64,000 nucleotides of DNA from Patescibacteria group bacterium (GTDB lineage Bacteria > Patescibacteriota > Patescibacteriia > SBBC01 > CAIJZX01), in assembly GCA_038065275.1 (NCBI GenBank), contig JBBTRH010000007.1:2873-66872 (forward strand), written 5' to 3'. A program made the position numbers and the translations under genes. Position 1 is the first letter of the stretch. Every line of letters starts with the position of its first letter. The notes under the pieces were generated by a model. It worked only from the letters and a program-made list of their open reading frames with translations, was not told the origin of the DNA and did no database searches. Shown here in pieces: positions 4,885 through 53,617 of this stretch.

Positions 4885-4993
4885 TCCCGTTAGAAATGAA
4901 CGAAGATGAACTATTGGTAAAAGCGAGGTTGTATTTACTTCCGCTACATTTTTCAAAAATAACGTTTTATTCATTTCTAACGGGACTAACGGG
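4885..4993. repeat. CCCGTTAGA hairpin element, copy 1
   Basis: Left arm TCCCGTTAGAAATGAA (4885-4900) and right arm TTCATTTCTAACGGGA (4970-4985), followed by a second CTAACGGG that abuts the folD ATG. The spacer is AT-rich. Confidence 0.7.
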
Positions 4994-5797
4994 ATGAGCG
5001 CGATCAAGCTCGACGGCCGCCGCGCGGCTGATCGAATGTTGGTACAATTAAAGAAAAAAATTCGGCGCACGCGGGAACCGATCACGTTAGCCACGATTCT
5101 CGTCGGTTCGCGTTATGATTCATCCCTCTACGTCCGCCTCAAGCGCCGCGCGGCCACTCGCGTCGGGATTAAAACCGAAGCGCATCATCTTCCGGCAACG
5201 ACAAAACAAGCGTCCTTGACGCGCCTGATTCGCGCGCTCAACCACCGCAAAAACATCAGCGGCATTCTACTACAACTCCCTTTGCCACCGCGCCTCGATG
5301 CTGACGCGGCCATCCGCGTCATCGATCCCCGCAAAGATGTTGACGGTTTTCACCCGCGCAACGCCGTAGTTGTTCCCCCGCCGGTAGCCGCCGTCTTGCG
5401 TCTTATCAATCTCGGCCAACCGCCGCGAGGTTCGTTCGCGGCCATCGTCGCCCAGCCGTCAGTTTTTACCGCCCGACTGGCGACCGAACTTGCCCGCCAT
5501 GGTTTTGTTCCGGCTGTCGTTGAACCGCACCGTAATCTGAACCTGGTCACGACCAAAGCCGACATTGTCGTCACCGCGCTTGGTCAGGGCGCGCGCTTGA
5601 CGGCCCGCGACGTCAAGCGTGGCGCGATCATCGTCGATGTCGGAATACGTCGGCACGGTAAAAAAACCATCGGCGATGTTCATCCCTCAGCCTGGAAAAA
5701 AGCTAAGGCCATCAGTCCCGTACCCGGCGGAGTTGGGCCGTTGACGGTCTCCTGCGTCCTCGAAAATACTTATCAGCTGGCCGAACATCAGTCGTGA
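4994..5797 (+). CDS. folD: Bifunctional methylenetetrahydrofolate dehydrogenase/cyclohydrolase
   Basis: KDVDGFHP motif; follows glyA, giving a one-carbon metabolism pair. Confidence 0.9.
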   Translation: MSAIKLDGRRAADRMLVQLKKKIRRTREPITLATILVGSRYDSSLYVRLKRRAATRVGIKTEAHHLPATTKQASLTRLIRALNHRKNISGILLQLPLPPRLDADAAIRVIDPRKDVDGFHPRNAVVVPPPVAAVLRLINLGQPPRGSFAAIVAQPSVFTARLATELARHGFVPAVVEPHRNLNLVTTKADIVVTALGQGARLTARDVKRGAIIVDVGIRRHGKKTIGDVHPSAWKKAKAISPVPGGVGPLTVSCVLENTYQLAEHQS

Positions 5798-5846
5798 TCC
5801 TCCAAAATCTTGGGTTCGAGAAAAAGGAATTGACCGGCGAGCAAGC

Positions 5847-6044
5847 GTGAAGCTCCGCCAGTCGCCGCCTTTGGCGGGATCCCGCTTGCGGCGGTGACAG
5901 GAGCTGGCGGCCTCACCGAGATGCGGTGCGGAGCCACGTAGAAGCCAGGCGCTTTACGTGGCGGAGCGTAACCCCGCACCGGAGGCCGAGCGCACCATAC
6001 TCCTCCACCGACAGAGTCGGTGGCCTCCTGGTGCGCGGGTAAAA
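5847..6044. repeat. GC-rich structured repeat, copy 1 (129-nt core plus 36- and 33-bp insertions)
   Basis: Matches 10281-10409 exactly outside two insertions. The core has several internal stems, including CCACCGAC-AGAG-TCGGTGG and GGTGCGG-N9-CCGCACC. Confidence 0.75.
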
Positions 6045-6074
6045 AAGAACCGCGCCCATCGATCGCGGTTTTTC
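6041..6074. terminator. Bidirectional intrinsic terminator
   Basis: A6-AACCGCG-N9-CGCGGTT-T5. It gives T6 on the minus strand directly after the stop of the 6079..6645 gene. Confidence 0.7.
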
Positions 6075-6078
6075 GTTG

Positions 6079-6645
6079 TCATATCCCCTGGCCGTTGGCC
6101 AAGAGGATGAAATTGCGGAGCGTGACCGAGTCGATCGGCAGTCGAATCGTCGTGCGGAGATACCCGCCCTCATCGGGACGTCCCGTGACGATCGCGACGC
6201 GGCCCGGCGGCCAGGGGTATTTTCCGAAACGATAGATCTCCAACCGAATGCCGTTTGCCGGACGCAACGGGCGGCCGTCGCCGTCAAGGATCCGGAGACT
6301 GATGCCGAGATCAGCCTGATCCTGTTTACCGGCGCGACGAATGAGTCCGGTGAGGAACATCGAATCGACCGGAAACTTGGCCATGACCAGCATGTTTCCT
6401 TCGCTGTCGAGCCGGCCGATGATGTACGCCCAACGGCCCGGCGCCCAGGTAGTCTGGCCGAAACGGGATACTTCCAAGCGGACGCCCGTCGGCGGATGGA
6501 GCGGCTGTCCATTTCCGTCAAGGACCCGGACCCCGACGCACATTTCAACGATTTTGATGTGTCCGCCATCCCTCGCGAATCCGGCTGTCGGATTCACCAT
6601 CGGGCCAAGGAGCAGAATGGCTATCATCCACCGAGACAGATGCAT
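6079..6645 (-). CDS. Secreted hypothetical protein with two internal ~60-aa repeats
   Basis: Signal peptide MHLSRWMIAILLLGPMVNPTAGFA. Two tandem repeats: VRVLDGNGQPLHPPTGVRLEVSRFG... and LRILDGDGRPLRPANGIRLEIYRFG... Confidence 0.7.
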   Translation of the reverse strand: MHLSRWMIAILLLGPMVNPTAGFARDGGHIKIVEMCVGVRVLDGNGQPLHPPTGVRLEVSRFGQTTWAPGRWAYIIGRLDSEGNMLVMAKFPVDSMFLTGLIRRAGKQDQADLGISLRILDGDGRPLRPANGIRLEIYRFGKYPWPPGRVAIVTGRPDEGGYLRTTIRLPIDSVTLRNFILLANGQGI

Positions 6646-6763
6646 CTCGAACCCCCGTTGGACATGAGAAAGATCAGAACGTCGGTAATGTCGGACGGAT
6701 AATAGCGGGTGGACGCTACGTTGTCAATCTTTCGCGGCAAAAAGAAAAACGCCGCGTGGTGGA

Positions 6764-7039: not shown

Positions 7040-7212
7040 GGCTCCTCCCTGAACAGCGGTGTAGCAAAGTCCGTATCATTTCCCTCCCGGTTCTCCGACG
7101 GTGCGATGCAAGGTGCGATGAGGATACACTACGTGATGTTGATGGTGATGTCAAGGCGCTATGAAGAGTGCCGTTGTCGCGGCGTCAACTGCGTGGTACG
7201 CTACATTCCCCT

Positions 7213-8292: not shown

Positions 8293-8300
8293 ACGGTTGA

Positions 8301-8403
8301 CCCAGCACCACATTGGCTAAAACAAAAGACTTGCCGATGATTCATTGATTACTACAACGTGACTTCTCAGTAAATCAACAAGTTAACCAATGTGGTGTCT
8401 GGG
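8301..8403. repeat. CCCAGCACCACA inverted-repeat element, copy 1
   Basis: CCCAGCACCACATTGG (8301-8316) and CCAATGTGGTGTCTGGG (8387-8403) flank a 70-bp AT-rich spacer. It starts 9 bp after the ychF stop. Confidence 0.65.
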
Positions 8404-8408
8404 TTAAT

Positions 8409-8508
8409 CCCGTTAGAAGCGGCTAAGCAAAAATTATTGATGAAGTGTTATTATGTGGCCACAAACAGAGTACACTATTTTGGTGCAGGTTTCCCCGCTT
8501 CTAATGGG
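8409..8508. repeat. CCCGTTAGA hairpin element, copy 2
   Basis: CCCGTTAGAAGCGG (8409-8422) and CCGCTTCTAATGGG (8495-8508), followed by TTGACA. Confidence 0.7.
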
Positions 8509-8625
8509 GTTGACAAGCCGTTGCCGTTTGTCGACGGAAGTCGTAGACTTGTACATAGTAGCCCTTTCCATTCCCAGTGATAAACACTCACGGGAGATTT
8601 GCGGCTCACACTTCAAGGAGGACGC

Positions 8626-10280: not shown

Positions 10281-10409
10281 GTGAAGCTCCGCCAGCAGGA
10301 GCTGGCGGCCTCACCGAGATGCGGTGCGGAGCGTAACCCCGCACCGGAGGCCGAGCGCACCATACTCCTCCACCGACAGAGTCGGTGGCCTCCTGGTGCG
10401 CGGGTAAAA
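10281..10409. repeat. GC-rich structured repeat, copy 2
   Basis: 129 nt identical to the copy-1 core. It lies in the rpsF upstream region. Confidence 0.75.
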
Positions 10410-10595
10410 GTGGGGCTGGGCTTGCCAGGTTTTCCGGCTCATGGTACCCTGCGTCCACGATGGTTGTGTCCCGAAGCGCTACGGCCTTCGGGACTCCCCG
10501 CAGATTGTGGGGACCCGCGCGCCATCGATCCGATCGAGGCACACCTTCGACGGTCATGGCGGGCGCCTCCCGCTTATTAGGTATTCATCCACTCC

Positions 10596-14003: not shown

Positions 14004-14702
14004 CTAACTATTCGTTGTGCTCGCCGGTGCCACAGCCGATTCGACAAGAATATTCCTGATTACCGTCCGCGGTCGGCTGTGTTTCTTAATGGCCGAAATT
14101 TTCAGCGCATTGAGTCCGATATGAAGGTCGATCGATTCATTAAACCGACCGTCACCGGAAGTCTGGACGTCCTGGTCGTTGATGGTCACCGTGGCGTTCG
14201 GGTCGGTCGTACCGCTGATGATCAAAGTCACGGCCGAGGTTGAAATATCCGTCGCCGGTTGCGTGACGGTCAACCGCGGGGGCAGGAAATTCCGCACAGC
14301 TTGGGTGCCGAGGTAGGTGACGGCTATGACCACGATGATGCCGGAGACGATGAAGCGAAGATGGCGCCGCACCCAGGGAAACTCCGTCGATGCTCGCGGG
14401 GTGAGGAGCGGCCGCGCGGTCGGTCCGGTCTTGGCCACCACGGCATATTCTTGCTCGAAGATCCCGACCGCCGTTTCCACGTCCGTCTCCAGCGCTTCCG
14501 CATACCGGCGGACGAACTGCCGAGCATAGACCAGCCCGGGCAAGTCACGATAACGCGATTCCTCGACGGCCGTGAGGTATTTCGAGGTGACGTGAATCCG
14601 CCGTCCGACGTCTTCAACTGACCATCCGGTTTCAGTCCGCAGGGCCCGTAGGCGGTCACCGAGCGTCGCCCCGGCCGTGAGCGGCCGCTTGGTGAACGTC
14701 AT
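14004..14702 (-). CDS. RodZ-like helix-turn-helix membrane protein
   Basis: N-terminal XRE-type HTH (LGDRLRALRTETGWSVEDVGRRIHVTSKYLTAVE), a single TM segment, then an extracytoplasmic domain. Confidence 0.6.
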   Translation of the reverse strand: MTFTKRPLTAGATLGDRLRALRTETGWSVEDVGRRIHVTSKYLTAVEESRYRDLPGLVYARQFVRRYAEALETDVETAVGIFEQEYAVVAKTGPTARPLLTPRASTEFPWVRRHLRFIVSGIIVVIAVTYLGTQAVRNFLPPRLTVTQPATDISTSAVTLIISGTTDPNATVTINDQDVQTSGDGRFNESIDLHIGLNALKISAIKKHSRPRTVIRNILVESAVAPASTTNS

Positions 14703-14775
14703 CCCGTTAGAGCGTTATATTGAAGCATTATTATTCTCATTACGGTCTGATCCGACGATGGCCGCTCTAACGGGA
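14703..14775. repeat. CCCGTTAGA hairpin element, copy 3
   Basis: CCCGTTAGAGCG (14703-14714) and CGCTCTAACGGGA (14763-14775). The element fills the whole 73-bp gap between the ftsK stop and the ATG of the RodZ-like gene. Confidence 0.75.
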
Positions 14776-17049
14776 TCATGCGCGGCCGGCCTCGTCCTCC
14801 CCGCCCCCGACCGGCGTCCGTTCATCGCTGGCTGGACTGTCATCAACGGGCAGGTCTCGCGGGTCGACCGGGATTCCATCCGCCGTGGCCGATACCTGAC
14901 CGGCATAGATTTCCCTAGGCTTGGCGCCGGAGCCGGGGCCGATGAATCCTTGTTGTTCAAGCAGATCCATGATGCGCGCCGCCCGGGCGTAACCGAGGCG
15001 AAGGCGGCGCTGGAGGAGAGTGGTCGAGGCTTTGCCGCTCTGGAGGATGACTTCTCTGGCTTGGGTCATCAGTTCGTCATCCCCGAGATCTTCCATGCTC
15101 CCGCTGATCATCGGCGCGGCTTTTTCGACGATGTCGTTCATATAATCCGGTCGGCCGCGTTGCTTAAGGAACTGGGTCACGCGTTCCACCTCTTTTTCCG
15201 AAACATAGGCGCCCTGCAAACGCTTCGGTTTGCTCAGCTCGGCCGAGACGAAGAGCATGTCTCCTTTGCCTAGCAATTTTTCGGCGCCAGAGGTGTCGAG
15301 AATCGTCCGCGAATCGATCTGCGAGGCGACGCTGAAGGCAATGCGGGCGGTGACGTTGGCCTTGATTAGGCCGGTGATAACATCGACTGACGGCCGTTGC
15401 GTGGCCAAGACGAGGTGGATGCCGACGGCTCGGGCCATTTGCGCCAACCGCACGATCGCGCCCTCGACTTCCTTGGCCGCGACCGACATCAAGTCAGCTA
15501 ACTCATCGATCACCACCACGATATAAGGCAGGTCGTCATTAATGTCTTTACGATAGGAGGCGATGTTGCGCTTGCCGGCGTTCTGGAATAACTGAAACCG
15601 GCGGTCCATTTCGCTGACCACCCAGCGCAGGGCGTTGATGGTCTTGATCGTGTCGGTAATGACCGGTGTTAAGAGGTGCGGGATGTCATTATACAACGAC
15701 AACTCGACTCGTTTTGGATCGACCAAGATGAGCTTCAAATCATCCGGCGAGTTGCTGTAGAGCAAACTCAGAATCAAACCGTTGATTTGCACCGATTTTC
15801 CCGAACCGGTCGCGCCGGCGATCAGCAGGTGCGGCAACGGATCGAGGTTGGCTACCCACGGTTGCCCGGACACGTCTTTGCCCAGTGAGAACGTCAAGTT
15901 CGACTTCCGGTTCTTAAAGTTGTCGGCTGTCAGGATATCGCGCAGATTGACCAGCGCCACGGCCTGATTCGGGACTTCAATGCCGACTAGGGACTTGCCG
16001 GGAATCGGCGCTTCAATGCGAATCGGGTGGGCGGCCAGGGCCAGGGCCAAGTCGTTGTATAGCGACGCGATCTGGGCTAAGCGTACTCCTTCCGACGGTT
16101 TGAGCGTGAACTGGGTGACCGTCGGGCCGACATTGACTTCGCCCATTTCGACCGCAATGCCGAAAGTTTCCAGCGTTTTGCGGATTTTTTCTTTATTCGC
16201 TTCAATGTTGCCGCTGGTCGGCTTGCCGGTCGATAGGTCCAGCAGGTCAAGCGGAATAGTGATCTGCCGCTTCTCTTTTTTCGCCGGTGCTGGCGGCCGG
16301 GGAGCGTCGGCTTCCTCCTCGTCCTCATCGCCGGCGCGATCATCGTCTGCCGGCGCATCAGCGATCGCTTGCTTCGTAAAACCCGGCGCGGCGTTTTCCG
16401 TTGCTTGCTCTTCATGGCCACCGGCATCCAGCGTTAATTTCCGGCGCCACCAGCGGTGACGGACCCAGGCCAAGAATTTCGCCGGCAGGTTCCCGCGATC
16501 GGCTAAGCCGCGCAGGGTCGTGTTGAACATGATCAACAGAGCGATAATAAACAATCCGGCCATGATCAGTCCGGCGGCCACCGCCCCGAACCCTTGGCGG
16601 AGCGGATAGTCCAATAACACGCCCAAGTATCCCCCGCCCTCACCGCCGATCGCCCGGCTGACCGACTCCGCCGCCGGCAGGAACAGTTGCAGGATGCCGG
16701 AGACGCTGATTACGGCTAAAACGAATCCGGCCCACTGGGTGGCGTTGATATGCAAACGCTCGGGAAACAGGAGCAGTGTCCCGACGACCGCTAGGTACAC
16801 CCAAATCACGTAGCGTTGCCAGCCCACCAATGTCCCCAACCCGCCGCTGATGGCGCTACCCAGACCGCTGGCGCCGTTGAAAACGCTCAACGCGCCAACC
16901 GCCGCCAGGATGAACAGCGCGACGATCGTGACGGCGCGGCGAGTTTCAGGAGTTAGCCTAGACCGCGGCGGTTCAGCCGAAACTGGGCGTCCGGATTGTT
17001 GATCGCCGTTGGCACGAGCGCGTCGCGCTGATCGTTTCGACTGAGCCAT
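14776..17049 (-). CDS. ftsK: DNA translocase FtsK
   Basis: N-terminal TM segments; FtsK/SpoIIIE motor with Walker A GATGSGKS; winged-helix C-terminus. Confidence 0.9.
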   Translation of the reverse strand: MAQSKRSARRARANGDQQSGRPVSAEPPRSRLTPETRRAVTIVALFILAAVGALSVFNGASGLGSAISGGLGTLVGWQRYVIWVYLAVVGTLLLFPERLHINATQWAGFVLAVISVSGILQLFLPAAESVSRAIGGEGGGYLGVLLDYPLRQGFGAVAAGLIMAGLFIIALLIMFNTTLRGLADRGNLPAKFLAWVRHRWWRRKLTLDAGGHEEQATENAAPGFTKQAIADAPADDDRAGDEDEEEADAPRPPAPAKKEKRQITIPLDLLDLSTGKPTSGNIEANKEKIRKTLETFGIAVEMGEVNVGPTVTQFTLKPSEGVRLAQIASLYNDLALALAAHPIRIEAPIPGKSLVGIEVPNQAVALVNLRDILTADNFKNRKSNLTFSLGKDVSGQPWVANLDPLPHLLIAGATGSGKSVQINGLILSLLYSNSPDDLKLILVDPKRVELSLYNDIPHLLTPVITDTIKTINALRWVVSEMDRRFQLFQNAGKRNIASYRKDINDDLPYIVVVIDELADLMSVAAKEVEGAIVRLAQMARAVGIHLVLATQRPSVDVITGLIKANVTARIAFSVASQIDSRTILDTSGAEKLLGKGDMLFVSAELSKPKRLQGAYVSEKEVERVTQFLKQRGRPDYMNDIVEKAAPMISGSMEDLGDDELMTQAREVILQSGKASTTLLQRRLRLGYARAARIMDLLEQQGFIGPGSGAKPREIYAGQVSATADGIPVDPRDLPVDDSPASDERTPVGGGEDEAGRA

Positions 17050-17130
17050 ATCCCGTTAGAAGCTATCTGAAAAAAAAGTGAATTGTTTGTTCATACGTGA
17101 TAAGCTTGTTATTACGGCTTCCAACGGGAC
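17050..17130. repeat. CCCGTTAGA hairpin element, copy 4
   Basis: CCCGTTAGAAGC (17052-17063) and GCTTCCAACGGG (17117-17128). It starts 1 bp upstream of the ftsK ATG. Confidence 0.7.
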
Positions 17131-17682
17131 ATGGAAGCGCTTAGGATAGCATAAAAATGGCCTTGCGGCAATCTGATTTGTAATCCTGACGCCCAGGCGA
17201 GGATAGAGTACGCTCGATACTATCCGGTGGCTGAGGAGAAGCTATGCCTCAACACGCCATCTTCACTACATACAGCACACGCTGGGGAGCATGCGCTGTG
17301 GGAAAAGGGGAGAGCTTGCGGAGCAAGAAAACTACTACCTCTTCAAACACCGTCGGCGCCCCCGCCGGCGGTCGCCGAAGAAGAATAAGTGTTACTCACT
17401 GTCAGCCCAAATTTTCCCGGGTCGTCCAATAGATTTAGCTTTCTAGGATCTCAAATTGTCCCTCTCTCAAAGCAAAAATGGGTAAATCCGCTTTATGCTT
17501 CTTCAATTTAGCATCTGCCTTACCCAATCAATGTTCGGCGCATTAATATTCACCCAAACTGTGTCGACCCGGCGTGAATGGGGTCGGCACAGTTTCTGTC
17601 TTTCGTACCCTCACCTGCCCCACTCCTCACCAGACCGCAACCATCCTCACCTATCCCGCCCTCGTGCGGAATGATGCGGTCT

Positions 17683-20600
17683 TTACGTCGCGGCGTTTTG
17701 GGCCGCTAGTTCATTCGCGGCGTTTTGGCGTTGATGAAGTTCGAATCCGGTCCCGGCCGGAATCGGTTTACCGATGATCACATTCTCCTTCAACCCGCGA
17801 AGCGGATCGATCTTACCCGAAACGGCGGCGTCGATTAAGACGCGGGCGGTTTCCTGGAATGAGGCGGCGGACAGCCAGCTTTCGGTGGTCAACGATGATT
17901 TCGTCACGCCGAGCAGGAGCGGTTCAATCTCCGGCGGCGACTTTTTTAGCCTGGCGATCAGCTCGTCGGCGACCGCCCGATCGACGATTTCCCCGACTAC
18001 TAGTTCAGTCCCGCCAGCCGACTTAACGTAGGCGCGGGAGAACATCTGGCGGACGATGATCTCGATGTGCTTGTCATTCAGGTATTGGCCCTGCGACGAA
18101 TAGATGAACTGGATTTCCTTGATGATGTATTTCTGCACCGCCTGACGGCCCTGGAGAACGTAGAGTTCCTGGAGATTAATCGATCCGTCGGTCAAGACGG
18201 CGCCGACATCCACCAGGTCGCCGTCGTTGACCCGCAAGATGGTATTGCCGGCCACGTCGAAGTCGGTCGTCGCTTGATGATCAAACTCGACGTAGGCCGC
18301 GGTAGGAGCGATCTTGACGATGCCGGCGCGTTTGGCCGTCACCGTCTTCTCGCCGATCGTCATCAGTAGCGCGCCGGCACTAACCCGAGCGCCGTCCTTG
18401 ACCTGGAGAACGGCTTTCACCTTGGCCCGCGCCTTCGGCAGGTCATAGCGGTCGTGGCCTGGCGCTTGATGGGCGAGCTTGATCACCCGGTGGTCGCCGC
18501 TGGAATCGATCTGTACTTGACCGGCCACGGTCGCTAACAGGGCCGGCGATTTCACCGGTCGGGCCTCGAACAACTCCTCGACCCGCGGCAAACCTTGAGT
18601 AATGTCATCACCACCGGCCACGCCGCCGGTATGGAACGTGCGCATGGTCAGCTGGGTGCCCGGTTCGCCGATTGATTGGGCAGCAATGATGCCAACGGCG
18701 GTGCCAATCTGCACCAGATCATTCCGGGCCAGGTCGTATCCGTAACAACGCTGGCAAACCCCCCGCACCGCTTTGCAGGACAGGACGGAGCGGATGGTGG
18801 CGGAGGTAAGGCGGGCCTTTTTTAGTTTGGCGACGATTTTCGGCGTCAACAGTTCGCCGTTCTTCACTAGCGTCTTCCCCTTCCCGTCGACCAGATCGGC
18901 CGCCAGCACCCGGCCGCTGATGCGGTGGATGATGTCGTAGCCCATCTCTTCGCTCTCGGCGGTGGTGATGGTGAACCCCTCAGTGTCGCCGCAGTCTTCC
19001 AGGTTGATCACCACATCCTGGGACACATCGACCAGCCGTCGCGTCAGATACCCGGCGTTAGCCGTCTTCAGCGCGGTGTCCGTTAGCCCTTTCCGCGCGC
19101 CGTGCGTGGAAATGAAGTATTCGAGCACATCGAACCCTTCCTTGAAACTGGCCTTGACCGGCAACTCGATAGTCTTCCCCGACGGGTTGCCGACCAACCC
19201 TTTCATGCCCATCATCTGGGTGGTTTGAGCCCACGATCCGCGCGCGCCGGAATTAATCATCATGTACACCGGGCCGAGCTTATTCAGCGTTTCTTTCGAA
19301 GCCGCTTGAATGTCTTCCTTAGCCGTCGTCCAGGTATTGATCACCCGGACATAGCGCTCGGTATCAGTCAGCAAACCGGCTTCGTAGGCTTCTTGAATTT
19401 CCCGGATGCGTTGTTCGGCGCGGGACAGAATGTCGGCTTTCTGGGCGGGGACTTCCAGGTCGCTCATGCCCCAGGAGATGCCGGACTGCGTGACGTATTT
19501 GAATCCGAAGTTCTTGACTGCGTCGAGCAGTTCAACCGTCCGCTCCTGGCCGAGCTCGACGAATGATCGTGAAACCAGCGCCGAGAGGGATTTCTTATCC
19601 ATGTTCTCGTTGATGAATCCGAGTTCCTTCGGCAAGATGCGGTTGAACAGAACGCGGCCGACCGTGGTGGCCATGCGTTCGCCCTCGATCCGGATAGTGA
19701 CCCGGGTCTGGAGGCCGATCCGGCCGGATTCGTAGGCTAGAATAGCCTCATCGGGGTGGGCAAAAGTGTAGTCTTTCTGGTCACCGGATTGAGTCATGTA
19801 GTAGCAACCCAAAACAATGTCCATGTTCGGCGTCATGACCGGCGTGCCGGTCGCCGGCTTGAGGAGGTTTTTCGTCGACATCATCAGGTTGGCCGCTTCC
19901 CACTTGGCCTGTTCGGTCAACGGCACGTGGACAGCCATCTGGTCGCCGTCGAAATCGGCATTAAAGGCACTGCAGACCAGCGGGTGGATCTGGATCGCCT
20001 TGCCTTCGATCAAAATGGGTTTGAAGGCTTGGATACCCAGGCGATGGAGGGTTGGGGCGCGGTTGAGGAGGACGGTCGCGCCCTTCGTCACCCCTTCCAA
20101 GATGTCCCAGACTTCGGGATGTCCGGCCTCAATGTACCGACCGGCGGAGCGGACGTTATGGACGTATTCGCGCTTGATCAACTCGGAGATGACGAACGGC
20201 CGAAAAAGTTCAAGGGCCATCCGTTTCGGCAGGCCGCACTGGTCGAGTCTGAGATACGGACCGATGACAATCACCGAACGGCCGGAGTAGTCGACCCGCT
20301 TGCCCAGGAGATTCTGACGGAACCGGCCTTGTTTGCCTTTCAGCATATCGGCGATTGAACGGAGCATCCGCTTTTGGCCGGTTGAGGCGGTGACCGTCTT
20401 GCCGTGACGGGCGCCGTTGTCGATCAAGGCGTCAACGGCTTCCTGTAGCATCCGTTTTTCGTTGCGGACGATGACTTCCGGAGCGTTAAGCTCAAGTAAT
20501 CGCTTCAGACGGTTATTCCGGTTAATGACCCGGCGGTACAGATCATTCAAGTCAGAGGTGGCGAACCGGCCGCCGTCGAGCTGGACCATCGGTCGGAGAT

Positions 20601-25282: not shown

Positions 25283-25394
25283 GTTAGCCCCGTTAGAGGT
25301 GATAGCGAAAACAAGGTGGAGATTAGTTGTCGTTATCCACAGCAATGTGGCGTATTAAAAAAAGTAATTACATTCGCCTCTAACGGGGTTAGCC
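25283..25394. repeat. CCCGTTAGA hairpin element, copy 5
   Basis: GTTAGCCCCGTTAGAGG (25283-25299) and CCTCTAACGGGGTTAGCC (25377-25394). A candidate promoter TTGTCA-N17-TAATGT (25256-25284) abuts its left arm. Confidence 0.7.
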
Positions 25395-38132: not shown

Positions 38133-40730
38133 TTAGGGTTTACCTCTTATTTTCTTCGGATAAAGCTTTTTAGCTTGACCGATGACTTCCTTCGCCGCCC
38201 AGTCAGGAGCATCACCGAAACTTTCCAAGTTCGTTCCGTCCGGCGCATATGTTGATACGACTTGTCGGGCACCGGATCCGATGCCTCCAGCTTTCACAAT
38301 CGCGCCTAAAGATTTCAGCGACTCTTTGGCGGCAATGGTCGTGGCCGGATTATCACTGCCGCCATCGGCTGAAACCAAGACTAATCGTAAACGTTCCTTG
38401 CCTGAAGTATGTTCACTCGCGTCTTCTTGAATCATTCGTCGAACGGTCTGCAATCCCAAGTGATCGGGAGTTCCGCCGCCGACATTCTCCTGCAAAGATC
38501 TCCAAACCCTGGCTTGTTCTTTCGGCCCCCATGATGTGCCGAGCGGCAATTCCACCTTACCCGATCCACCTTGAAAACTCACTAACGCCACGCGCAAATC
38601 CAGCGGAGAAATCAACTTAATTTTCTGTCGTTTGAACTCCTGGGCCGCCCCGTACATGGAATCCATCATCAGGAACACGAACGTTTGCTGATCTTCCCAT
38701 TTCGGCCGACCACTGCTTGGATCGGTCTCAGACATGGACCCGCTTTTATCAACCGTCAAAAATGCATCAAACCCGCCGTAAATTTGTTCACGTTCCACCT
38801 TTCGTTCGTACTTGGAAAAACCCGACGGATCAGCCTCGCCGGCCGCCATATCCAAAACCGTTTCCACCGGATCAACGAGTTCCTGACCGCGAGAAAGTCT
38901 GATGGGTGCGGTGTATCTAATTCGGTTTACTAAATTATCTTGAATGACTTTTTGCCATTCCGCCAGCAACCGTGATCGAATATTCCGTCCTTGGTTGTCT
39001 CTCTTTTCTCGTGCTTCGGAAATCTTTCTCATAATTACCTTGGCCTCTTCTGGCGTACAATCGGCCTCGGCGGCAAAACGAAGTGCGGCCAGCTCCTCCG
39101 GCGCTCGCTCTTTCTGCTCCAGGGCTCGCTCAGCATCAGCCATCAGTTTTTCCAGCTGTTCGTCACTTAACACTTCCGCCTCTTGTTCGCCAAAATCACC
39201 TTCAAAAGCATCATCAGATTTTTCTTCGTCCGTTTCTTGGACGTCCATGTTTGGATCACCCGGCGGGGTGGCGTCTAATCTCTGCCAACGCTGGCCATCC
39301 CAGGCTTCCGCCCAGGCATGCGCCGTGCCGGAAGACATCACGGTGGCATTCTGCTTATCTTTTACTTTAACATAATGGCCGGATACCAGACACGATGGAA
39401 TTCCTATTCGGCGCAATAAAGCCACAAAGTAGGTGTTGGCGACATCGCAATCCGCCTGCCGGTGTTGCTCGATGCGTGAAAAGTATTCATTCGGGTCGCC
39501 GGACCGATAAACCGCATTGAAACTGGAATCATTGGAGTATTTTAGTGTGCTTCTGACAAAAGCCTTCAACGCCCGAGCTTTATCAAGAGCTGATTGATTG
39601 GATCTTACAATTTCTTCCAACTTACGTTGAGTTTCAGGAGAAAGAACTTCTGTCCCTGGCTGTGGCGCACTGGGGGCAACTTCTAAAACCGGTGTTGTAT
39701 TTTTACCAATCTCGGCTGAAAAAGAAATGAGTCCACGTTGCTTACTGGCGTCGATAATGAAACTGCCATGTCCATCACTTTTCACCGGCAAGACTTCACC
39801 ACCATGGGTCCGGATGGTTTGGACATCAGGCGCGTATCCATAAGGCATCGGAAGAATGGTTCTCTTGCCTCCATGTATCGTTCCGGCTACGGTTTTCCTG
39901 GTTTTTGCATCAAGCGACGTTTCTTCAACATCAGCAAGCGAGCTAGCCGACTTCTCCCAGCGCATGGCTCGATTGTTCCAGGTGTCAAAATCATCACCAC
40001 GGTAATACCCGCCGTAGAATGGTCGGACAGTGAAATATGCGCCCGGTTCATTCTCTTTGGATCGTTCCATCTCCTCCATGCTTGGGGTCAACGTGTCCTC
40101 TTGCGGCGGCGGAACATTCAAATCGGGTTGCTCCTGTTTCTGTTTCATGACTTCCGGCGGCGGTGGCTCCTGGGCTTTCGCTCGAGCTTCTTCCGTATCA
40201 CGAGATTCCAACCAATCCAGTGCTCCGGCTAATCGTGATTCAAACCATTGAAATTTGCTCCCGTAACTGATATTCCCTGAAGCCATCAGTTCAGAAACAT
40301 CAACCTCTCCTTCGGTCGATTGGCTCTTTACAATCCGGGTAAAAATCCGCTCCACCTCCGGGCGAACTTTTGGCATCGGCTGACCCAACTGCTTTGCCCG
40401 AAAACAAGAGAGGAGTTCGTTAACCCGATTTGGTTCAAGGCCAGTTGGTTCAGTTTGAGCCATGACTTCCGCCTGTAAGGCTTCAGTGTTTTCTGGGGAC
40501 GCCCTGACCGATCGATCGTATGCGCCGAGGGTTTCAAAAACGTGTTTCGCCGTCCGGGCTGATTTGCTCCGCTTGCCCAGCGATTGCCAAGAGCGCAGGC
40601 CGGCAATTCCCTCTCTTGATTGTAGGGCCTGGCCGATAGCCGCATTTTTGGCCTGGCGAAAAGCGTCTTTGGCGTCAAAACTGGCGATCTCTGGTTGTTC
40701 GGGATGACGACTTAATTCCGGGTTAGACAT
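38133..40730 (-). CDS. Large protein with transglutaminase-like cysteine-protease core and C-terminal von Willebrand factor A domain
   Basis: TGc core …QADCDVANTYFVALLRRIGIPSCLVSGHYV…GTAHAWAEAWDGQRWQRLDATP (Cys-His-Asp). vWA with MIDAS motif VDKSGSMS. Its start overlaps the RT stop by 8 bp. Confidence 0.75.
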   Translation of the reverse strand: MSNPELSRHPEQPEIASFDAKDAFRQAKNAAIGQALQSREGIAGLRSWQSLGKRSKSARTAKHVFETLGAYDRSVRASPENTEALQAEVMAQTEPTGLEPNRVNELLSCFRAKQLGQPMPKVRPEVERIFTRIVKSQSTEGEVDVSELMASGNISYGSKFQWFESRLAGALDWLESRDTEEARAKAQEPPPPEVMKQKQEQPDLNVPPPQEDTLTPSMEEMERSKENEPGAYFTVRPFYGGYYRGDDFDTWNNRAMRWEKSASSLADVEETSLDAKTRKTVAGTIHGGKRTILPMPYGYAPDVQTIRTHGGEVLPVKSDGHGSFIIDASKQRGLISFSAEIGKNTTPVLEVAPSAPQPGTEVLSPETQRKLEEIVRSNQSALDKARALKAFVRSTLKYSNDSSFNAVYRSGDPNEYFSRIEQHRQADCDVANTYFVALLRRIGIPSCLVSGHYVKVKDKQNATVMSSGTAHAWAEAWDGQRWQRLDATPPGDPNMDVQETDEEKSDDAFEGDFGEQEAEVLSDEQLEKLMADAERALEQKERAPEELAALRFAAEADCTPEEAKVIMRKISEAREKRDNQGRNIRSRLLAEWQKVIQDNLVNRIRYTAPIRLSRGQELVDPVETVLDMAAGEADPSGFSKYERKVEREQIYGGFDAFLTVDKSGSMSETDPSSGRPKWEDQQTFVFLMMDSMYGAAQEFKRQKIKLISPLDLRVALVSFQGGSGKVELPLGTSWGPKEQARVWRSLQENVGGGTPDHLGLQTVRRMIQEDASEHTSGKERLRLVLVSADGGSDNPATTIAAKESLKSLGAIVKAGGIGSGARQVVSTYAPDGTNLESFGDAPDWAAKEVIGQAKKLYPKKIRGKP

Positions 40731-41805
40731 AATCAGTATTTAGTCCGAGGCTTAGGCGAAGTTTCTCCCGCAGGTTATAGCTTTTCAACTGCGCCAGTAA
40801 ACCAATGTATGAAGCGAGCTGTTTCCCGACCAGACTCTGATATCCTTGGCTAGCCGCGTCGCCAGCCACCGCCAACGATGCCCTCCGCAATCTGATTCTC
40901 GGTACCAACCCATAAGGAAAAGCTACGGCTCCCAACATATCAACTCCCTGACTTAAACTACGGATAATGATTTTCTCGTCTGGTAAGGTTAAGTGGAGTC
41001 GAGTACGTAAAAAATCTTTCGCTTTCTGCGATACCTCGATTAAATGATTTTTATTCGCGGACACGATGTAAAAGTCGTCATTATACCGAGCGTAGCAACG
41101 AATATCACACACTTGTTTCATGAAGTAATCGAACTCATGCAAATAGATATTGGCGAATACTTGGGAAGTAAGGTTGCCGAGCGGAATCCCACGACCGCCA
41201 CTTCTCGAGTCCGAGCCTCGAAGTCGAGGACTGACATCTCCGGCGGAGCCGGATCCGGCTTCGCCGGAAAAACTGTTAATAATTGTCCGGCACAGTCGGA
41301 TATATTGCGGATCCTTCACTTGGCGACGGATGAGTGACAGTAAAATCTGATGATCGACGCTCCCGAAAAAGTTAGCGACGTCTCCGTGAAAAACATAGAC
41401 CTCTCGAGAAAAACTCTTGCTTTCCTGCCGCAAAAAATCCCAGATCCGGCTGATAGCCGCTTGCGTGCCCTTTCCCAGCCGACACGAATATGAATCAAAA
41501 AAGAATTGCCGATCGAACAGCGGGCACAAGGCCGAATATATCGCTTGGTGCACAATTCGATCCCGCACCGTCGCTTTATGAATAGAACGAAATTTAGGAT
41601 CTCGAACATAAAATCGGTTGTACTCGTCGTGCCGGTACGTTCCCGACTTAAGCTCTTTCGACAACTGCATCAGCTCCGATTCTAAATGGCGCTCGAAATC
41701 GATAACATCCCGTCGTTCCTGTTTTCCGCGTCGAAACCGTCTCCAGGCAAGATAGAGATTATCAAATCCTATTAACCCACTAAATGTTTGCAAACTATAT
41801 GTCAC
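40723..41805 (-). CDS. Diversity-generating retroelement reverse transcriptase
   Basis: RT motifs RSIHKATVRDRIVHQAIY, SYSCRLGKGTQAAI, FHGDVANFFGSVDH, the DGR-type motif GIPLGNLTSQVFANIYL (with the [I/L]GxxxSQ signature) and catalytic YARYNDDFYIV. GTG start with no ribosome-binding site. The gene has lower GC than its surroundings. Confidence 0.85.
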   Translation of the reverse strand: MTYSLQTFSGLIGFDNLYLAWRRFRRGKQERRDVIDFERHLESELMQLSKELKSGTYRHDEYNRFYVRDPKFRSIHKATVRDRIVHQAIYSALCPLFDRQFFFDSYSCRLGKGTQAAISRIWDFLRQESKSFSREVYVFHGDVANFFGSVDHQILLSLIRRQVKDPQYIRLCRTIINSFSGEAGSGSAGDVSPRLRGSDSRSGGRGIPLGNLTSQVFANIYLHEFDYFMKQVCDIRCYARYNDDFYIVSANKNHLIEVSQKAKDFLRTRLHLTLPDEKIIIRSLSQGVDMLGAVAFPYGLVPRIRLRRASLAVAGDAASQGYQSLVGKQLASYIGLLAQLKSYNLREKLRLSLGLNTDYV

Positions 41806-42164
41806 AAGATTCTTTCGACCCGCCGGTCGTTATAAAGATTTATAAAACCTATCAGATTTTCATTCCGCTACTGGCGAATTTCCCGAAACCGCAACGATAT
41901 ACTCTCGGACAGGTGATTGATCGTTCCCTTTTAAGCATGTTGGAATACATCTTTGAGGCCAATGCTATGCCGCTACCCTTGCGAGAGTCCTTACTCCTCC
42001 GAGCGATGGCGAAATGCGAATTGACAAAGATACTTATTCGGCTGTCATGCGAGAGTAGCATCATCAATAACACGCAGTACTTCCAACTCATGTCTAATCT
42101 TCAGGAGGTTGGTAAAATGCTGGGAGGATGGATCAAATACATTCGCCATCTGCCGGTAAAGTAA
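41784..42164 (+). CDS. avd: Avd-like four-helix-bundle protein (accessory variability determinant candidate)
   Basis: 126 aa with …FPKPQRYTLGQVIDRSLLSMLEYIFEAN… and C-terminal …EVGKMLGGWIKYI, matching the layout of the four-helix-bundle (bAvd) family. It ends 12 bp before the TR but is on the opposite strand, and its start overlaps the RT start head-to-head. Confidence 0.55.
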   Translation: MFANYMSQDSFDPPVVIKIYKTYQIFIPLLANFPKPQRYTLGQVIDRSLLSMLEYIFEANAMPLPLRESLLLRAMAKCELTKILIRLSCESSIINNTQYFQLMSNLQEVGKMLGGWIKYIRHLPVK

Positions 42165-42175
42165 TGACTGTTCTC

Positions 42176-42513: not shown

Positions 42514-43164
42514 CTATCTGATTATTCTGTTGGCAATGATCGGTACTTCCCGTAAAAAATACTTCTTTACCTGCGCCCAGGTAGCGTCAAAATATATTTC
42601 CGGGTTTGGGTCGGTTTCGGCGTCTTCAAAAAAGACCAAGCTCTTCAAAATGTGGTGGTAATTGTGAGCCACCGACGGATACTGAATTTTCAATCTCTTA
42701 ATAATGTCCTCCAAGGATTCAACATTATTGGCGCACCAGTACAAATCAAAATAATCTCTTTTTTTACCGCGCTGTGAGATGGCGGTGATCTTCATGACCG
42801 CGATATCAAGCTGATTCAGTATCCGGATCGATCCGTAACGGAGAAAATTTTGTTTTGGGAGAAAGAATGGGTAGGCGATGAAACTTATTTTGCTTTTGGA
42901 CAGCTCGCCGTAAATGGTATTTTTTTCTTCCACGGTCGTCTCCCAGTTTTTATAGCGGGCAAAGTTCGATAGCAACTTTTTGGTATCAAAATCTGAATCG
43001 AGCGTAAAAAAATCTAAATCCAGAGACCGACGATGGCCGGCCTGAAGCGCCAGAGCCGTTCCGCCCGCCAAATACCATCCCGACGTAGTAAGCCATTGCT
43101 GTTGAGACAAAAAATCAAGTGCCTTCCTAGTGCGGTGCGGTAATGTTTGGTATTGCCAGTTCAT
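42514..43164 (-). CDS. AbiEii/AbiGii-family nucleotidyltransferase (type IV toxin-like)
   Basis: LAGGTALALQAGHRRSLDLDFF motif typical of DUF1814/AbiEii nucleotidyltransferases; AT-rich. Confidence 0.65.
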   Translation of the reverse strand: MNWQYQTLPHRTRKALDFLSQQQWLTTSGWYLAGGTALALQAGHRRSLDLDFFTLDSDFDTKKLLSNFARYKNWETTVEEKNTIYGELSKSKISFIAYPFFLPKQNFLRYGSIRILNQLDIAVMKITAISQRGKKRDYFDLYWCANNVESLEDIIKRLKIQYPSVAHNYHHILKSLVFFEDAETDPNPEIYFDATWAQVKKYFLREVPIIANRIIR

Positions 43165-46140: not shown

Positions 46141-46166
46141 AATGATTGAAAAGTATGTGACATAAA

Positions 46167-46271
46167 CCCAGCACCACAATGGTTGATTCGTTGTTATTTC
46201 TGAAAAAAGTGCAGTCTTTACTCACGTATACGTATTTTTTTTAGTTCGCATTATACCATTGTGGTGCTGGG
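46167..46271. repeat. CCCAGCACCACA inverted-repeat element, copy 2
   Basis: CCCAGCACCACAATGGT (46167-46183) and ACCATTGTGGTGCTGGG (46255-46271), a perfect 17-bp IR around a 71-bp AT-rich spacer. It lies in the divergent region between the DGR target gene and uvrB. Confidence 0.7.
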
Positions 46272-46418
46272 TAAACGTTGCAACTTACACCATAATCGTT
46301 CTTTTGTCAATCTAGATTTTTTTATTCTGTTCGACTGCTATTATAGCAGAGATTGGGAGAAAAATCAAGTTTTTTCTTCAAGACCTATATGCCATAGACA
46401 TGGTAGGCTACCCGCATC

Positions 46419-48503: not shown

Positions 48504-48563
48504 CTGACACTTGCGCTCCTGGCGGAACGTGCTAAGATAGCCCCCGTTCTTTGTCATTTCTCC

Positions 48564-48683
48564 TTGTCCGACGAAGCCTTCTTGTCCACCGAAGCTTCAG
48601 CGTAGGTGGAGGCGTAGTCGGGCTTGTCCGACGAAGCCTTCTTGTCCACCGAAGCTTCAGCGTAGGTGGAGGCGTAGTCGGGC
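48564..48683. repeat. Perfect tandem duplication of a 60-bp unit
   Basis: TTGTCCGACGAAGCCTTCTTGTCCACCGAAGCTTCAGCGTAGGTGGAGGCGTAGTCGGGC occurs twice. Each unit contains the hairpin CCACC-N14-GGTGG. The array sits between a candidate promoter (TTGCGC-N16-TAAGAT, 48511-48538) and the M16 peptidase start. Confidence 0.85.
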
Positions 48684-48714
48684 TAAACCCGAAACCCGCT
48701 AGGAGGTGATCGCC

Positions 48715-49995: not shown

Positions 49996-49996
49996 C

Positions 49997-50024
49997 CCCT
50001 GTACCCACGGGGGTTTTTCTTAAA
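49997..50024 (+). terminator. Intrinsic terminator after the M16 peptidase gene
   Basis: CCCCTGTACCCACGGGGG followed by TTTTTCTT. Confidence 0.65.
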
Positions 50025-51626: not shown

Positions 51627-51983
51627 GGTTGATTCTCCTTTTGTTGTCAAAGATCGCCGGAACCCAGCGATCTATGGGGTCTGCCTATGCTAAATAGTCG
51701 CTAATGCTGGGTTTCTACCCCCACCCTACTCCTCCACTTTTCGTTCGTCAAGGCAACTCCCCCCTCACGAACGGCGTGGACATGAAAAAGGGTGCTGGTG
51801 TCAACGGCTGATGGAGGTGCCAGACTCACCGTTGACGTTCTCTCCGTCGGAGGGGCCTCCGGCAGCGGAGGGGGGACCTCGACATCAGGGACGGATCGGC
51901 GGATCGCGGGTCCAGCCGATTTTAGTCCAACCAGCACCCAACAATTACAGTATAGCCCTCCGGCTGGTAGCTGGCTATATCGC

Positions 51984-52012
51984 TTGATGGACACCACAGG
52001 TTGTGGTACACT
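51984..52012 (+). promoter_or_regulatory. Candidate sigma70 promoter of rpsT
   Basis: TTGATG-N17-TACACT, about 35 nt upstream of the rpsT ATG. Confidence 0.4.
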
Positions 52013-52048
52013 CCGCCTGCTTGGCTGTTTATTTATTCCTGACTCGTC

Positions 52049-52309
52049 ATGCCCACTACTACCGCCGCCGCTAAAGCTTACCGCCAGAATCTTAAAGCTC
52101 GGGCGCGCAACGCGATCGTCAAGCATCAACTGAAAAAACTCCAGGTCCGGCTCCGGAAAGCGCTCACCGCCAACCAGACCGACCAGGTGAAGACCGTCGC
52201 TCAGGAACTCGTCCGTGCCTACGACAAAGCGGCCCAGAAGAAGGTCATCACTCGGAACACCGCGGCCCGCAAGAAGTCGCGGTTAGCCGCCGCGTTGCGG
52301 TCAGCCTAG
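52049..52309 (+). CDS. rpsT: 30S ribosomal protein S20
   Basis: 86 aa, basic: MPTTTAAAKAYRQNLKARARN…. Confidence 0.9.
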   Translation: MPTTTAAAKAYRQNLKARARNAIVKHQLKKLQVRLRKALTANQTDQVKTVAQELVRAYDKAAQKKVITRNTAARKKSRLAAALRSA

Positions 52310-53301
52310 CGTTCAATCAGAATCAGATCGAGCAACGTCTCTGCGTCGAGCGGCGACGTTTTAAGATCGTGGTCAATCTCAAGCAGGCGATGGTGGAGAT
52401 CGCGTAGTTCAGCGGGCCGGAAATGCGATGTCTGGGCTAACGCTTTTTGGACGACGTACGGGTGCAGGCTAAGTTCGGCCGCGATCGCCGCCGGGCTGAG
52501 GCCGCGTTCCTTGGTCCGCTGCACCTGCCACAAATTACGGACATGGCTGGCCAGCGTGGCGATCAGGGCGAACTCGTTCGATCCGGCGGACAATTCGCGG
52601 TGCAGTAACTCAAGCGCCCGCGCGGTCTGACGCTGGCCAAGCGCGTCGGTCAAGGCAAAGATGTCGCTGGCGTATTCGCTCTTGACCATGGCGTCGACAT
52701 CGGCCACGGTCACGACGCGGCCGGCGGCGTAGGCCAACAGCTTCTCCAGTTCCGTCGCCATCCGCCAGGAATCCCGATTGCACAGCGCCACCAGGCGCTG
52801 GGCCGCGGCGGGATCGAGCAGGCCGGCTTGTGCTTGAGCTTCCCGGCCCAGCCAGGCCACGGCTTGCGCCGCCGTCAGCTGGGCGAATGTTTCACGTTTT
52901 TCCTTCGGCAGGACCAGTTGGCCGGGCGCTGTTCGTCCGGTAGTTTTGGCGCGTGACCCCGCCGCCGGTCGCCTGGCGGAACGCTCCGGCTCTGCCAGCA
53001 GGTCACGAATAACAACCACTACGTCGCTGTCCTTCGCCGCGACCGGTTCGAGTAGCGACGACAAGCGGTCTGGTTTGAGCGGCCCGTCAGGCGCATAGCG
53101 GTCAAGGGCGACAAATCGTTTGGCCGCAAAAAAACCCGTCGTCGTGACGGCGGTCCGCAGTTCTTCCAGGCTCGTCGTGGCGCCGTCGAGCGTCACGGTA
53201 TTGAACCCGCGCGGATCGTGCTTGGCTACGAATGCCGACCGCAGTTCGGCCAGTCGTTGGGCTGAACGGTAGGTGTCGGCGCCGGTCAGGTGGATGGTCA
53301 T
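52306..53301 (-). CDS. holA: DNA polymerase III subunit delta
   Basis: Start at Met22 (MTIHLTGADTYRSAQRLAEL…), typical HolA N-terminus. The tracked N-terminal extension reads through hairpin element copy 6. Confidence 0.75.
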   Translation of the reverse strand: MTIHLTGADTYRSAQRLAELRSAFVAKHDPRGFNTVTLDGATTSLEELRTAVTTTGFFAAKRFVALDRYAPDGPLKPDRLSSLLEPVAAKDSDVVVVIRDLLAEPERSARRPAAGSRAKTTGRTAPGQLVLPKEKRETFAQLTAAQAVAWLGREAQAQAGLLDPAAAQRLVALCNRDSWRMATELEKLLAYAAGRVVTVADVDAMVKSEYASDIFALTDALGQRQTARALELLHRELSAGSNEFALIATLASHVRNLWQVQRTKERGLSPAAIAAELSLHPYVVQKALAQTSHFRPAELRDLHHRLLEIDHDLKTSPLDAETLLDLILIER

Positions 53302-53402
53302 CCCGTTAGAGGTGATGGAAATAAGAACATATCGAACTGCTTCTGGTGGATGCTTGGAGTGCACCTAATGGAAATAACATAGTATTCGTCACCTCTAACG
53401 AG
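53302..53402. repeat. CCCGTTAGA hairpin element, copy 6
   Basis: CCCGTTAGAGGTGA (53302-53315) and TCACCTCTAACGAG (53389-53402). It begins at the base after the holA ATG. Confidence 0.7.
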
Positions 53403-53521
53403 ATCATGGCGTTGACCTCATCAGAGACAGTTTCCGTCCAACCGGACAATAAGACGACTATGCGTAACGAGGAAACAATGGTTGGGTTTGAACATGATCA
53501 TGCCCACGCTAATGGAGTTGG

Positions 53522-53617
53522 CCCCGTTAGAGGCGAAAGTTGTTTGCCTCAGTTAGCTGGTGCGATTCCGGACGCCGGAAAGATCAACCGTTCTCTTGAT
53601 ATCAGCGTCTAACGGGG
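53522..53617. repeat. CCCGTTAGA hairpin element, copy 7
   Basis: CCCCGTTAGAGGCG (53522-53535) and CGTCTAACGGGG (53606-53617), immediately followed by TTGACA. Confidence 0.7.

Follow-up and report, generated by a model that had tools for sequence, protein, structure and literature searches.

The DNA analysed here is a 64-kb stretch (the window) of a metagenome-assembled genome (MAG) from Hainich groundwater, assigned to the Patescibacteria (candidate phyla radiation, CPR) near Kerfeldbacteria. Beside lgt, glyA, folD, rodZ, ftsK, rpoB and holA it carries eight complete short hairpin elements, which we name c1 to c8, of 74-103 bp. Their general layout is Y-CCCGTTAGA-NNN ... NNN-TCTAACGGG-R, in which two complementary arms enclose an AT-rich interior. 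The 9-mer core CCCGTTAGA occurs 12 times on the two strands of the window, where shuffled sequences would give 0.47 (0 of 100 shuffles reach 12), so that within the window the count lies well above the chance level for a 9-mer which the original prediction had named as the outcome that would speak against the family. Allowing one mismatch revealed the four missing partner arms, at 3622, 8500, 17120 and 53394, and each plus-strand core then pairs with a minus-strand core 54-83 nt downstream. The seven copies first listed from the sequence alone are all real, with boundaries that moved by 1-6 bp. What had been taken for a half-site at 3554-3567 is in fact the left end of the eighth complete copy, c1, whose right arm TCTAGCGGG lies at 3622-3630. 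A search of the window with up to two mismatches per arm gave no further or decayed copies (11 overlapping matches, against 2.5 in shuffles).

Every copy in the window (8/8) is flanked by a direct repeat of 3-4 bp. The first, c1 (3554-3631), lies between the lgt stop codon (3551-3553) and glyA; its arms, CC-CCCGTTAGA-GGC (core 3556-3564) and GCC-TCTAGCGGG-G (core 3622-3630), contain one T:G mismatch, and TTGA stands on either side (3550-3553 and 3632-3635). The second, c2 (4885-4985, 101 bp), has the arms T-CCCGTTAGA-AATGAA and TTCATT-TCTAACGGG-A between copies of CTAA (4881-4884 and 4986-4989), and sits inside the right arm of a degraded short element of older date, at 4858-4994. Read directly from the sequence, this older element is T-CCCGTTTCG...TTTCTAA[c2]CGGG-A, split by c2, and it occupies the former ATGA overlap between the glyA stop (TGA 4855-4857) and the folD start (ATG 4994-4996). 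In c3 (8408-8509) the arms are T-CCCGTTAGA-AGCGG and CCGCT-TCTAATGGG-G, with one G:T in the core and T:G as the terminal pair; the flanks are TTAA (8404-8407) and TTGA (8510-8513), and the right flank reads TTGACA, similar to a -35 box.

The next two copies belong to the ftsK region, where both ftsK and rodZ lie on the minus strand. The 74-bp c4 (14702-14775) sits in the ATGA overlap of the ftsK stop and the rodZ start, between 3-bp repeats TCA (14699-14701 and 14776-14778; TGA on the gene strand), and its terminal T14702 is the complement of the A in the rodZ ATG. c5 (17051-17129) separates a conserved extended -10 promoter from the ftsK start (ATG 17047-17049) and is flanked by CATA (17047-17050) and CATG (17130-17133), which are TATG and CATG on the gene strand; the single mismatch in its core is G:U on the ftsK sense strand. 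c6 (25288-25388) lies about 210 bp upstream of rpoB within a perfect TTAG repeat (25284-25287 and 25389-25392). c7 (53301-53403; right core TCTAACGAG) abuts the minus-strand holA start (ATG 53299-53301) and has 3-bp TCA repeats (53298-53300 and 53404-53406), and c8 (53522-53617) stands between TTGG (53518-53521) and TTGA (53618-53621), with a consensus-type promoter, TTGACA-N17-TAGCAT, as its right flank.

Sites that lack the element were present among 146 loci fetched from other genomes (handles beginning with L; 1.1 Mb in total with 3,887 open reading frames (ORFs), a small part of each genome). At the c4 site the ftsK/rodZ ATGA overlap is intact in seven of them, L123, L124, L125, L126, L127, L129 and L145. 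The window instead reads ...GCGCA TGA [T CCCG...CGGG A] TGA CGTTC, so that one copy of the duplication is the ftsK stop and the other copy is the rodZ start. The c5 site is uninterrupted, as TGCTATACT-N10-TATG-GCTCAG, in L123, L126, L127 and L129, and the window has c5 at the TATG; in these four relatives the ftsK promoter is an extended -10 element 10 nt from the ATG, a leaderless-type arrangement. Upstream of rpoB, L123 has a single GGCTAATATTAGCC (one GGCTAAT) where the window has GGCTAAC[c6]GCTAACATTAGC. We conclude from the flanking direct repeats and the empty orthologous sites that c1-c8 are insertions with target-site duplications, that is inserted mobile elements in which the core forms the terminal inverted repeat.

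Elements of the same kind occur well beyond this genome. Scanning the GTDB representative genomes for paired cores, at core-to-core lengths up to 102, gave at least 119 loci. By our own arithmetic, about 270 matches are expected by chance in 596 Gb (31 spacings x 4^-18 x 596e9), but the matches carry features beyond the pattern, namely complementarity outside and inside the core and TNNA direct repeats. The bases at the terminal position are complementary in 92% of the elements of the scan, those at +1 in 91%, at +2 in 92% and at +3 in 75%. In 137 elements of other genomes the two flanks repeat each other directly at positions -5 to -2 (62-77% identity), with the consensus T-N-N-A. The central NN matches only in direct orientation in 74 of them and only in inverted orientation in 6, and the outer positions agree with a 4-bp duplication (73 perfect TNNA repeats). 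Models with a 5-bp or 6-bp duplication were rejected, as the outer positions match directly in 44-50% only and L(-1) pairs with R(+1) in 92%; a duplication of 4 bp fits best.

Among the matches listed, nearly every host is one of the Patescibacteria, Planctomycetota (anammox bacteria among them), Desulfobacterota-like bacteria or Omnitrophota, with a few Nitrospirota MAGs, and no host comes from the cultured phyla that dominate the GTDB representative collection. A few viral contigs also carry copies. Core-to-core lengths among these matches peak at 76-78 and 99-100 bp, with a minor peak at 92-93. A metagenome scan with a pattern specific to c4 gave matches from the same organism only. Rfam has no match at gathering score across the whole window, nor at E<=0.1 around c3, c5, c7 and c8, and searches of the literature for the motif, and for MITEs (miniature transposable elements that have inverted repeats) together with Planctomycetes, candidate phyla radiation or Patescibacteria, returned no description. 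The family, which we interpret below as hairpin MITEs that share a 10-bp invariant end across phyla and have free interiors, is therefore not previously described in the searched literature or in Rfam.

Over 145 arm pairs the stem comprises 13 bp, made up of nine invariant pairs and four that covary. The terminal pair is C:G in 85 and T:A in 48; position +1 is A:T in 83, G:C in 27 and T:A in 18; position +2 is A:T in 81, G:C in 42 and C:G in 10; and position +3 is T:A in 59, C:G in 23, G:C in 17 and A:T in 11. The covariation score of 0.272 compares with 0.138 in shuffles and was reached by 0 of 500. Past +3, pairing in a fixed register is at background, with single copies extending further, and in L039 a compensatory T:A to G:C change has taken place within the core itself. 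Two of the copy-specific complementary extensions first described, AAATGAA/TTCATTT and AGCGG/CCGCT, are as given; the third, GGTGA/TCACC, is GGTGA/TCGCC in c6, with one mismatch. At the variable positions of gene-abutting elements, G:T pairs fall four times on the sense and four times on the antisense strand, beside 171 Watson-Crick pairs. This lack of a G:U strand bias indicates that the covariation reflects the identity of the inverted repeats in DNA and not an RNA helix. The original prediction had read the covariation as selection for a stem in DNA or RNA, and not as the mark of a simple transposon terminal repeat. Selection for pairing does find support, in the four covarying positions and in two orthologous copies that keep their arms (see below), whereas the denial of a terminal repeat fails on the target-site duplications and the three empty sites.

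The interiors behave quite differently from the arms. They had been described as AT-rich and non-conserved, and this is borne out, with a GC content of 0.30-0.53 against about 0.57 for the window and no similarity between copies (pairwise z -1.2 to 3.0). Capture of host DNA as interiors was rejected, since a comparison with the rest of the window and with the fetched loci gave no match for any of them. In the predicted folds of all eight copies the arms make up the closing stem (z -2.9 to -6.2). As regards descent within a genome, some genomes do contain identical or near-identical interiors (three times in L015; in L006, L011 and L068, all from DX4.bin27; and in L094), and the eight copies in the window share their ends only.

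We consider it likely that these elements are non-coding, non-autonomous, MITE-like hairpin transposons and not regulatory RNA genes. The features expected of a MITE that we observe are a 10-bp invariant terminal inverted repeat with three further matched bases, target-site duplications of 3-4 bp, empty sites for c4, c5 and c6, a length of 74-103 bp and the absence of coding capacity. The duplication argues for a DDE-type transposase with 4-bp staggered cuts, and such an enzyme would act in trans and recognise the invariant CCCGTTAGA ends. If only elements with two identical ends keep transposing, the stem would appear to covary at the level of DNA. The interior would need only to be flexible and of a suitable length to join the ends, with lengths clustering near 75 or 100 bp. 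More tentatively, the enzyme could be of the piggyBac/IS1380 type, with CC(C) termini and duplications of 4-5 bp, and old copies in this lineage might now be constrained by the host, as part of the 5' untranslated region or intercistronic spacer of essential genes. CPR genomes are tiny and gene-dense and are thought to be poor in mobile DNA. Counting the second family described below, the 64-kb window would hold ten hairpin transposons of two families at the borders of the essential genes rpoB, ftsK, rodZ, holA, glyA and folD. The shared 10-bp end is a cross-phylum marker of a common mobilome in uncultured groundwater and sediment lineages.

The surviving copies sit where a duplication of 4 bp (sometimes 3), usually T-N-N-A, spares a host signal. 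Of 125 elements, 43 (34%) directly adjoin a start codon whose ORF has 80 codons or more, against 5% of RTNNAY control sites, and the terminal purine of these elements is the first base of the ATG or GTG. Elements that end in T:A abut a start codon in 29 of 37 cases, and in 16 of the 125 a stop codon precedes the element and the next start follows it. At a start codon the TG falls within the duplication and the last purine of the element restores the A or G of the ATG or GTG. In an ATGA overlap one duplicate keeps the stop and the other the start. Just upstream of a -35 box the duplication is TTGA and leaves the hexamer TTGACA whole; TTGA followed by CA recurs as a flank in the window at c3 and c8, and in L014, L086, L105 and L143. 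CTAA in the arm of another element also serves as a target and gives rise to nested copies, which we observe for c2 and in L146 at the ftsK/rodZ junction. The family illustrates how mobile DNA can spread in a compact genome, by way of 4-bp targets that, once duplicated and joined to the purine or pyrimidine end of the element, yield an intact start codon, stop/start overlap or -35 box again.

An in-frame N-terminal extension was rejected, since the gene frame runs open through 4 of the 46 copies that abut a gene, against a background of 23%, stop codons interrupt it in the other 42, and the lengths show no bias towards multiples of three. ORF finders do run genes upstream through the right arm, where TCT AAC GGG ATG is read as Ser-Asn-Gly-Met, in many loci (L029, L087 and L099 among them) and at 52306-53364 of the window. 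Automatic annotations of such genomes probably contain false N-terminal extensions ('SNGM').

Orthologous copies give a view of the family over longer times. L128, whose FtsK is 76% identical, carries an element at the c4 site and another at the c5 site. At the c4 site both 16-nt arms are identical, in a setting where the flanking coding sequences are about 65-75% identical (alignment read by eye), and the interiors share 69% identity against 52% in shuffles (z=3.8, in a lenient global alignment). At the c5 site the arms differ at four positions and the interior has mostly drifted. The ftsK/rodZ junction of L146 carries a c4-type element whose left arm, CCCGTTAGAGCG, is the same and whose interior is unrelated, and the element nested there has the 16-nt arms and the 99-bp length found for c2 in the window, again with an unrelated interior. 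In a neighbour-joining tree of 1,676 residues the window and L128 are sisters in 3 of 300 bootstraps; L128 groups with L129, which is without both elements. The orthologous copies are either old, with precise loss in several lineages that restored ATGA and TATG, or the product of repeated insertion by the same subfamilies. Under either history, arms that are kept while interiors drift imply that the arms are under selection, whether through the element, through the host or through both, and these loci make a tractable test case for telling the two apart.

The loop of c4 contains TGCT(A/T)TCA(C/A)T, conserved between the window and L128 and placed 16 nt upstream of the rodZ ATG, which may be an internal promoter. 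The spacer between rpoC and ftsK is about 630 bp in the window (17130-17683 beyond c5) and about 720 bp in L128 (6878-7603), but only about 115 bp in L123 and L129; c5 and the conserved promoter account for part of the extra DNA, and a 95-aa ORF is called in the L128 spacer.

Known bacterial MITEs such as Correia/NEMIS, RUP, ERIC, Bcr1 and Nezha are likewise short and non-coding, with terminal inverted repeats and target-site duplications, lie between genes and often beside coding sequences, form strong hairpins when transcribed, and depend on a transposase in trans (PMC3733652). Their terminal repeats are 15-30 bp long (PMC3733652), whereas the conserved repeat here has 10-13 bp. Our family also differs from them in that it sits with single-base precision at start codons, at ATGA overlaps and at -35 boxes, and in that no parent insertion sequence (IS) is known for it.

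Several observations weigh against a MITE origin. Eight copies with unrelated interiors within one genome are unusual for a MITE family, as is an identical 10-bp end in several phyla for a terminal repeat specific to one transposase. Neutral decay of a MITE cannot give perfect orthologous arms, which would require selection by the host or repeated insertion at the same site. The autonomous partner was not found either. No parent IS, transposase or long element with the same ends is present in the window or in the 1.1 Mb of fetched loci, which are parts of genomes, when core pairs are sought at long range. No transposase lies next to solo ends or between paired copies among the inspected ORFs of the loci, nor among the checked ORFs of the window, and a generic search of the loci for inverted repeats of the CCC...GGG type at a distance of 0.6-3.5 kb, bordered by a 4-bp duplication, gave no autonomous element. 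Searches by phmmer with piggyBac and the ISEcp1 transposase returned nothing among the 3,887 ORFs. Finally, where the core is mismatched in the window or in L128, the pair is G:U on the sense strand of the neighbouring gene in all five orientable cases, which, in so small a sample, hints at a constraint at the level of RNA.

One way to accommodate such a constraint would be that the invariant ends are recognised by an enzyme conserved in Patescibacteria, Planctomycetota, Desulfobacterota and Omnitrophota, and that the hairpin is removed or bypassed in RNA through cleavage at the base of the stem, to give a leaderless or nearly leaderless mRNA from the recreated R-UG. This would explain the base-exact placement at starts, the conserved arms at the ftsK and rodZ sites and core mismatches that are exclusively G:U on the sense strand, and the elements would then be boundary-safe insertions acting like introns of gene borders, and not just parasites that the host tolerates. 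We regard it as rather unlikely.

It is also unlikely that the elements are REPIN-like, with a hairpin that forms in single-stranded DNA and is moved by a single-copy HUH/Y1 transposase of the RAYT type, and with a population that is passed on vertically and long retained. The anatomy fits, as REPINs have conserved inverted ends and a poorly conserved spacer (about 70 nt preferred) whose length and pairing are of importance, undergo compensatory changes, persist long at fixed loci and form nested or higher-order arrangements (PMC3116915, PMC3337134). Our copies persist at orthologous sites with conserved arms, and 45 of 137 elements show shorter hairpins (27-45 bp) and a third motif, internal and similar to the core. 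Y1_Tnp (RAYT-like) genes occur in three fetched loci, L027, L028 and L065 (Pfam confirmed two). In L028 and L065, however, these genes are flanked by their own, different REP sequences, GTAGGGTGGGC... and ACAAGGTTCAACCTTGT respectively, and the gene in L027 has no adjacent copy of the hairpin element. A link to RAYT was therefore rejected, as none of the three Y1 genes in the loci is linked to the element. REPIN ends are palindromic REPs with a GTAG or CGTC tag and are associated with Y1 genes, whereas our arm is not palindromic and has neither tag. Transposition of the HUH type (IS200/IS605) is not expected to duplicate its target, whereas here there are variable duplications of 3-4 bp and matching empty sites.

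A third explanation is that the hairpins are host RNA structures, immobile stem-loops of 5' leaders or intercistronic regions that act in mRNA processing, stability or translation. c5 lies between the conserved promoter and the ftsK AUG and c4 within the transcription unit of ftsK and rodZ, strong stems are predicted, orthologues keep the arms and the core mismatches show the sense-strand bias described above. Motifs similar to a Shine-Dalgarno sequence, 9-15 nt upstream of the start, occur inside the gene-facing arm in 8 of 46 copies, against 1 of 46 at opposite ends and 10 of 186 elsewhere. Enrichment of -10-like motifs at the gene-facing ends of the 46 gene-abutting copies was not significant. 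A Shine-Dalgarno or leaderless -10 role for TCTAACGGG-ATG was rejected, since the spacing to the ATG varies, the hexamer is without the conserved A2/T6 and the Shine-Dalgarno-like motif is limited to 8 of 46. The suggestion that the elements are transcribed as 5' leaders holds for at least one copy, c5, but not as a general rule, since other copies lie between genes or upstream of -35 boxes (c3, c8, L014, L086, L105), where they would escape transcription with the gene. The duplications and empty sites speak for insertion, the covarying positions show no G:U strand bias, Rfam gave no match, and an invariant 9-mer would be unexpected in a purely structural helix. On this evidence an immobile host structure is improbable, and a role in host RNA is plausible solely as a secondary, acquired one.

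Much less probable is that the arms are paired operator half-sites for a DNA-binding regulator that loops AT-rich intergenic DNA. The invariant inverted 9-bp core, the few preferred spacings and the frequent position by promoters or start codons would suit such a function, but copy-specific matched extensions, target duplications and nested copies would not be expected, and the same promoters occur in sister genomes without the element. Least probable of all are attC sites bounding the gene cassettes of an integron, which occur in cassette arrays with an integrase. As inverted repeats these are imperfect, 57-140 bp long and variable in the centre, and the core GTTAGA/TCTAAC resembles their R' (GTTRRRY) and R'' (RYYYAAC) boxes, but the polarity is reversed (GTT...AAC here, AAC...GTT in attC), the flanking genes are housekeeping genes in conserved synteny, the copies are scattered, the insertions make direct repeats and no integrase is present among the checked ORFs of the window.

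For the MITE-like transposons that we favour, the closest lead to an enzyme comes from piggyBac and IS1380. Both share the 4-bp duplication (4-5 bp in IS1380) and piggyBac has a target of the T...A type, TTAA; their ends start with CC(C), followed after a few bases by TAGA. The piggyBac end is CCCTAGAAAG, and the end of ISEcp1, which we verified, is CCTAGATTCTACGT, compared with CCCGTTAGAAAT in the hairpin family. The apparent precise loss that restores the target also recalls piggyBac and IS1380. The family differs in using TNNA, and also CTAA, TATG and TGA, instead of a strict TTAA, and the likeness of the ends extends over a few bases; the relation is a lead and not a demonstrated relationship. 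Should the enzyme prove to be a prokaryotic piggyBac-like transposase with precise excision, it would be of practical interest. The Rickettsia palindromic elements (RPEs) are similar in being small, palindromic and mobile and in persisting at or within essential genes of reduced genomes, but RPEs are translated in frame, unlike the elements described here.

The window contains a second family of hairpins, with two copies. The first (8301-8403) has the terminal inverted repeats CCCAGCACCACATTGG and CCAATGTGGTGTCTGGG around an AT-rich interior, with the flanks TTGA (8297-8300) and TTAA (8404-8407), and directly adjoins c3, the TTAA being common to both. The second (46167-46271; CCCAGCACCACAATGG and CCATTGTGGTGCTGGG) has a perfect 4-bp duplication, TAAA (46163-46166 and 46272-46275). 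The ends of this family are CCCAGCACCACAWTGG, or CCCAG...CTGGG, with 4-bp TNNA duplications, a length of about 100 bp and interiors of about 70 bp. It has the same architecture as c1-c8 and probably the same type of enzyme, and no copy is present in any of the 146 fetched loci.

Two of the fetched loci contain unusual relatives of the elements. In L043, from a Saccharibacteria MAG, the interior of one element (4972-5126) is a complete tRNA-Thr(CGT) whose acceptor stem continues the stem of the element; this is a single case, and it is followed by the partial 3' half of a second tRNA that ends in the same TCTAACGGGG. In L144 a 180-bp insert (10380-10558) separates rpoB from rpoC, which are 9 bp apart in the window, and ends in CTTCTAACGGA-ATG; it looks like a decayed copy of the c1-c8 family abutting the rpoC start.

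Other parts of the window also deserve mention. Directly after c8, the near-consensus promoter TTGACA-N17-TAGCAT is followed by about 1.1 kb without a convincing ORF (53618-54775), for which Rfam has no match at E<=0.1 and which may be an unannotated RNA or small-protein region. On the minus strand at 38133-41805, an 865-aa Transglut_core/VWA protein has a reverse transcriptase of 360 aa (RVT_1) directly upstream, at a GC content of 0.48-0.50, and this looks like a diversity-generating retroelement locus. The low-GC stretch around it, from about 38 to 44 kb, further contains a 28-nt inverted pair (41986-42013 and 42142-42169) and an AbiEii toxin gene (42514-43164). A perfect tandem duplication of a 60-bp unit is found at 48563-48684, in a part with several overlapping ORFs on the two strands. 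A 117-aa ORF (58432-58785) has at both ends arrays of a heptamer, CCTACAA, and of the complementary TTGTAGG (58279-58440 and 58794-58845), which look like iterated binding sites.

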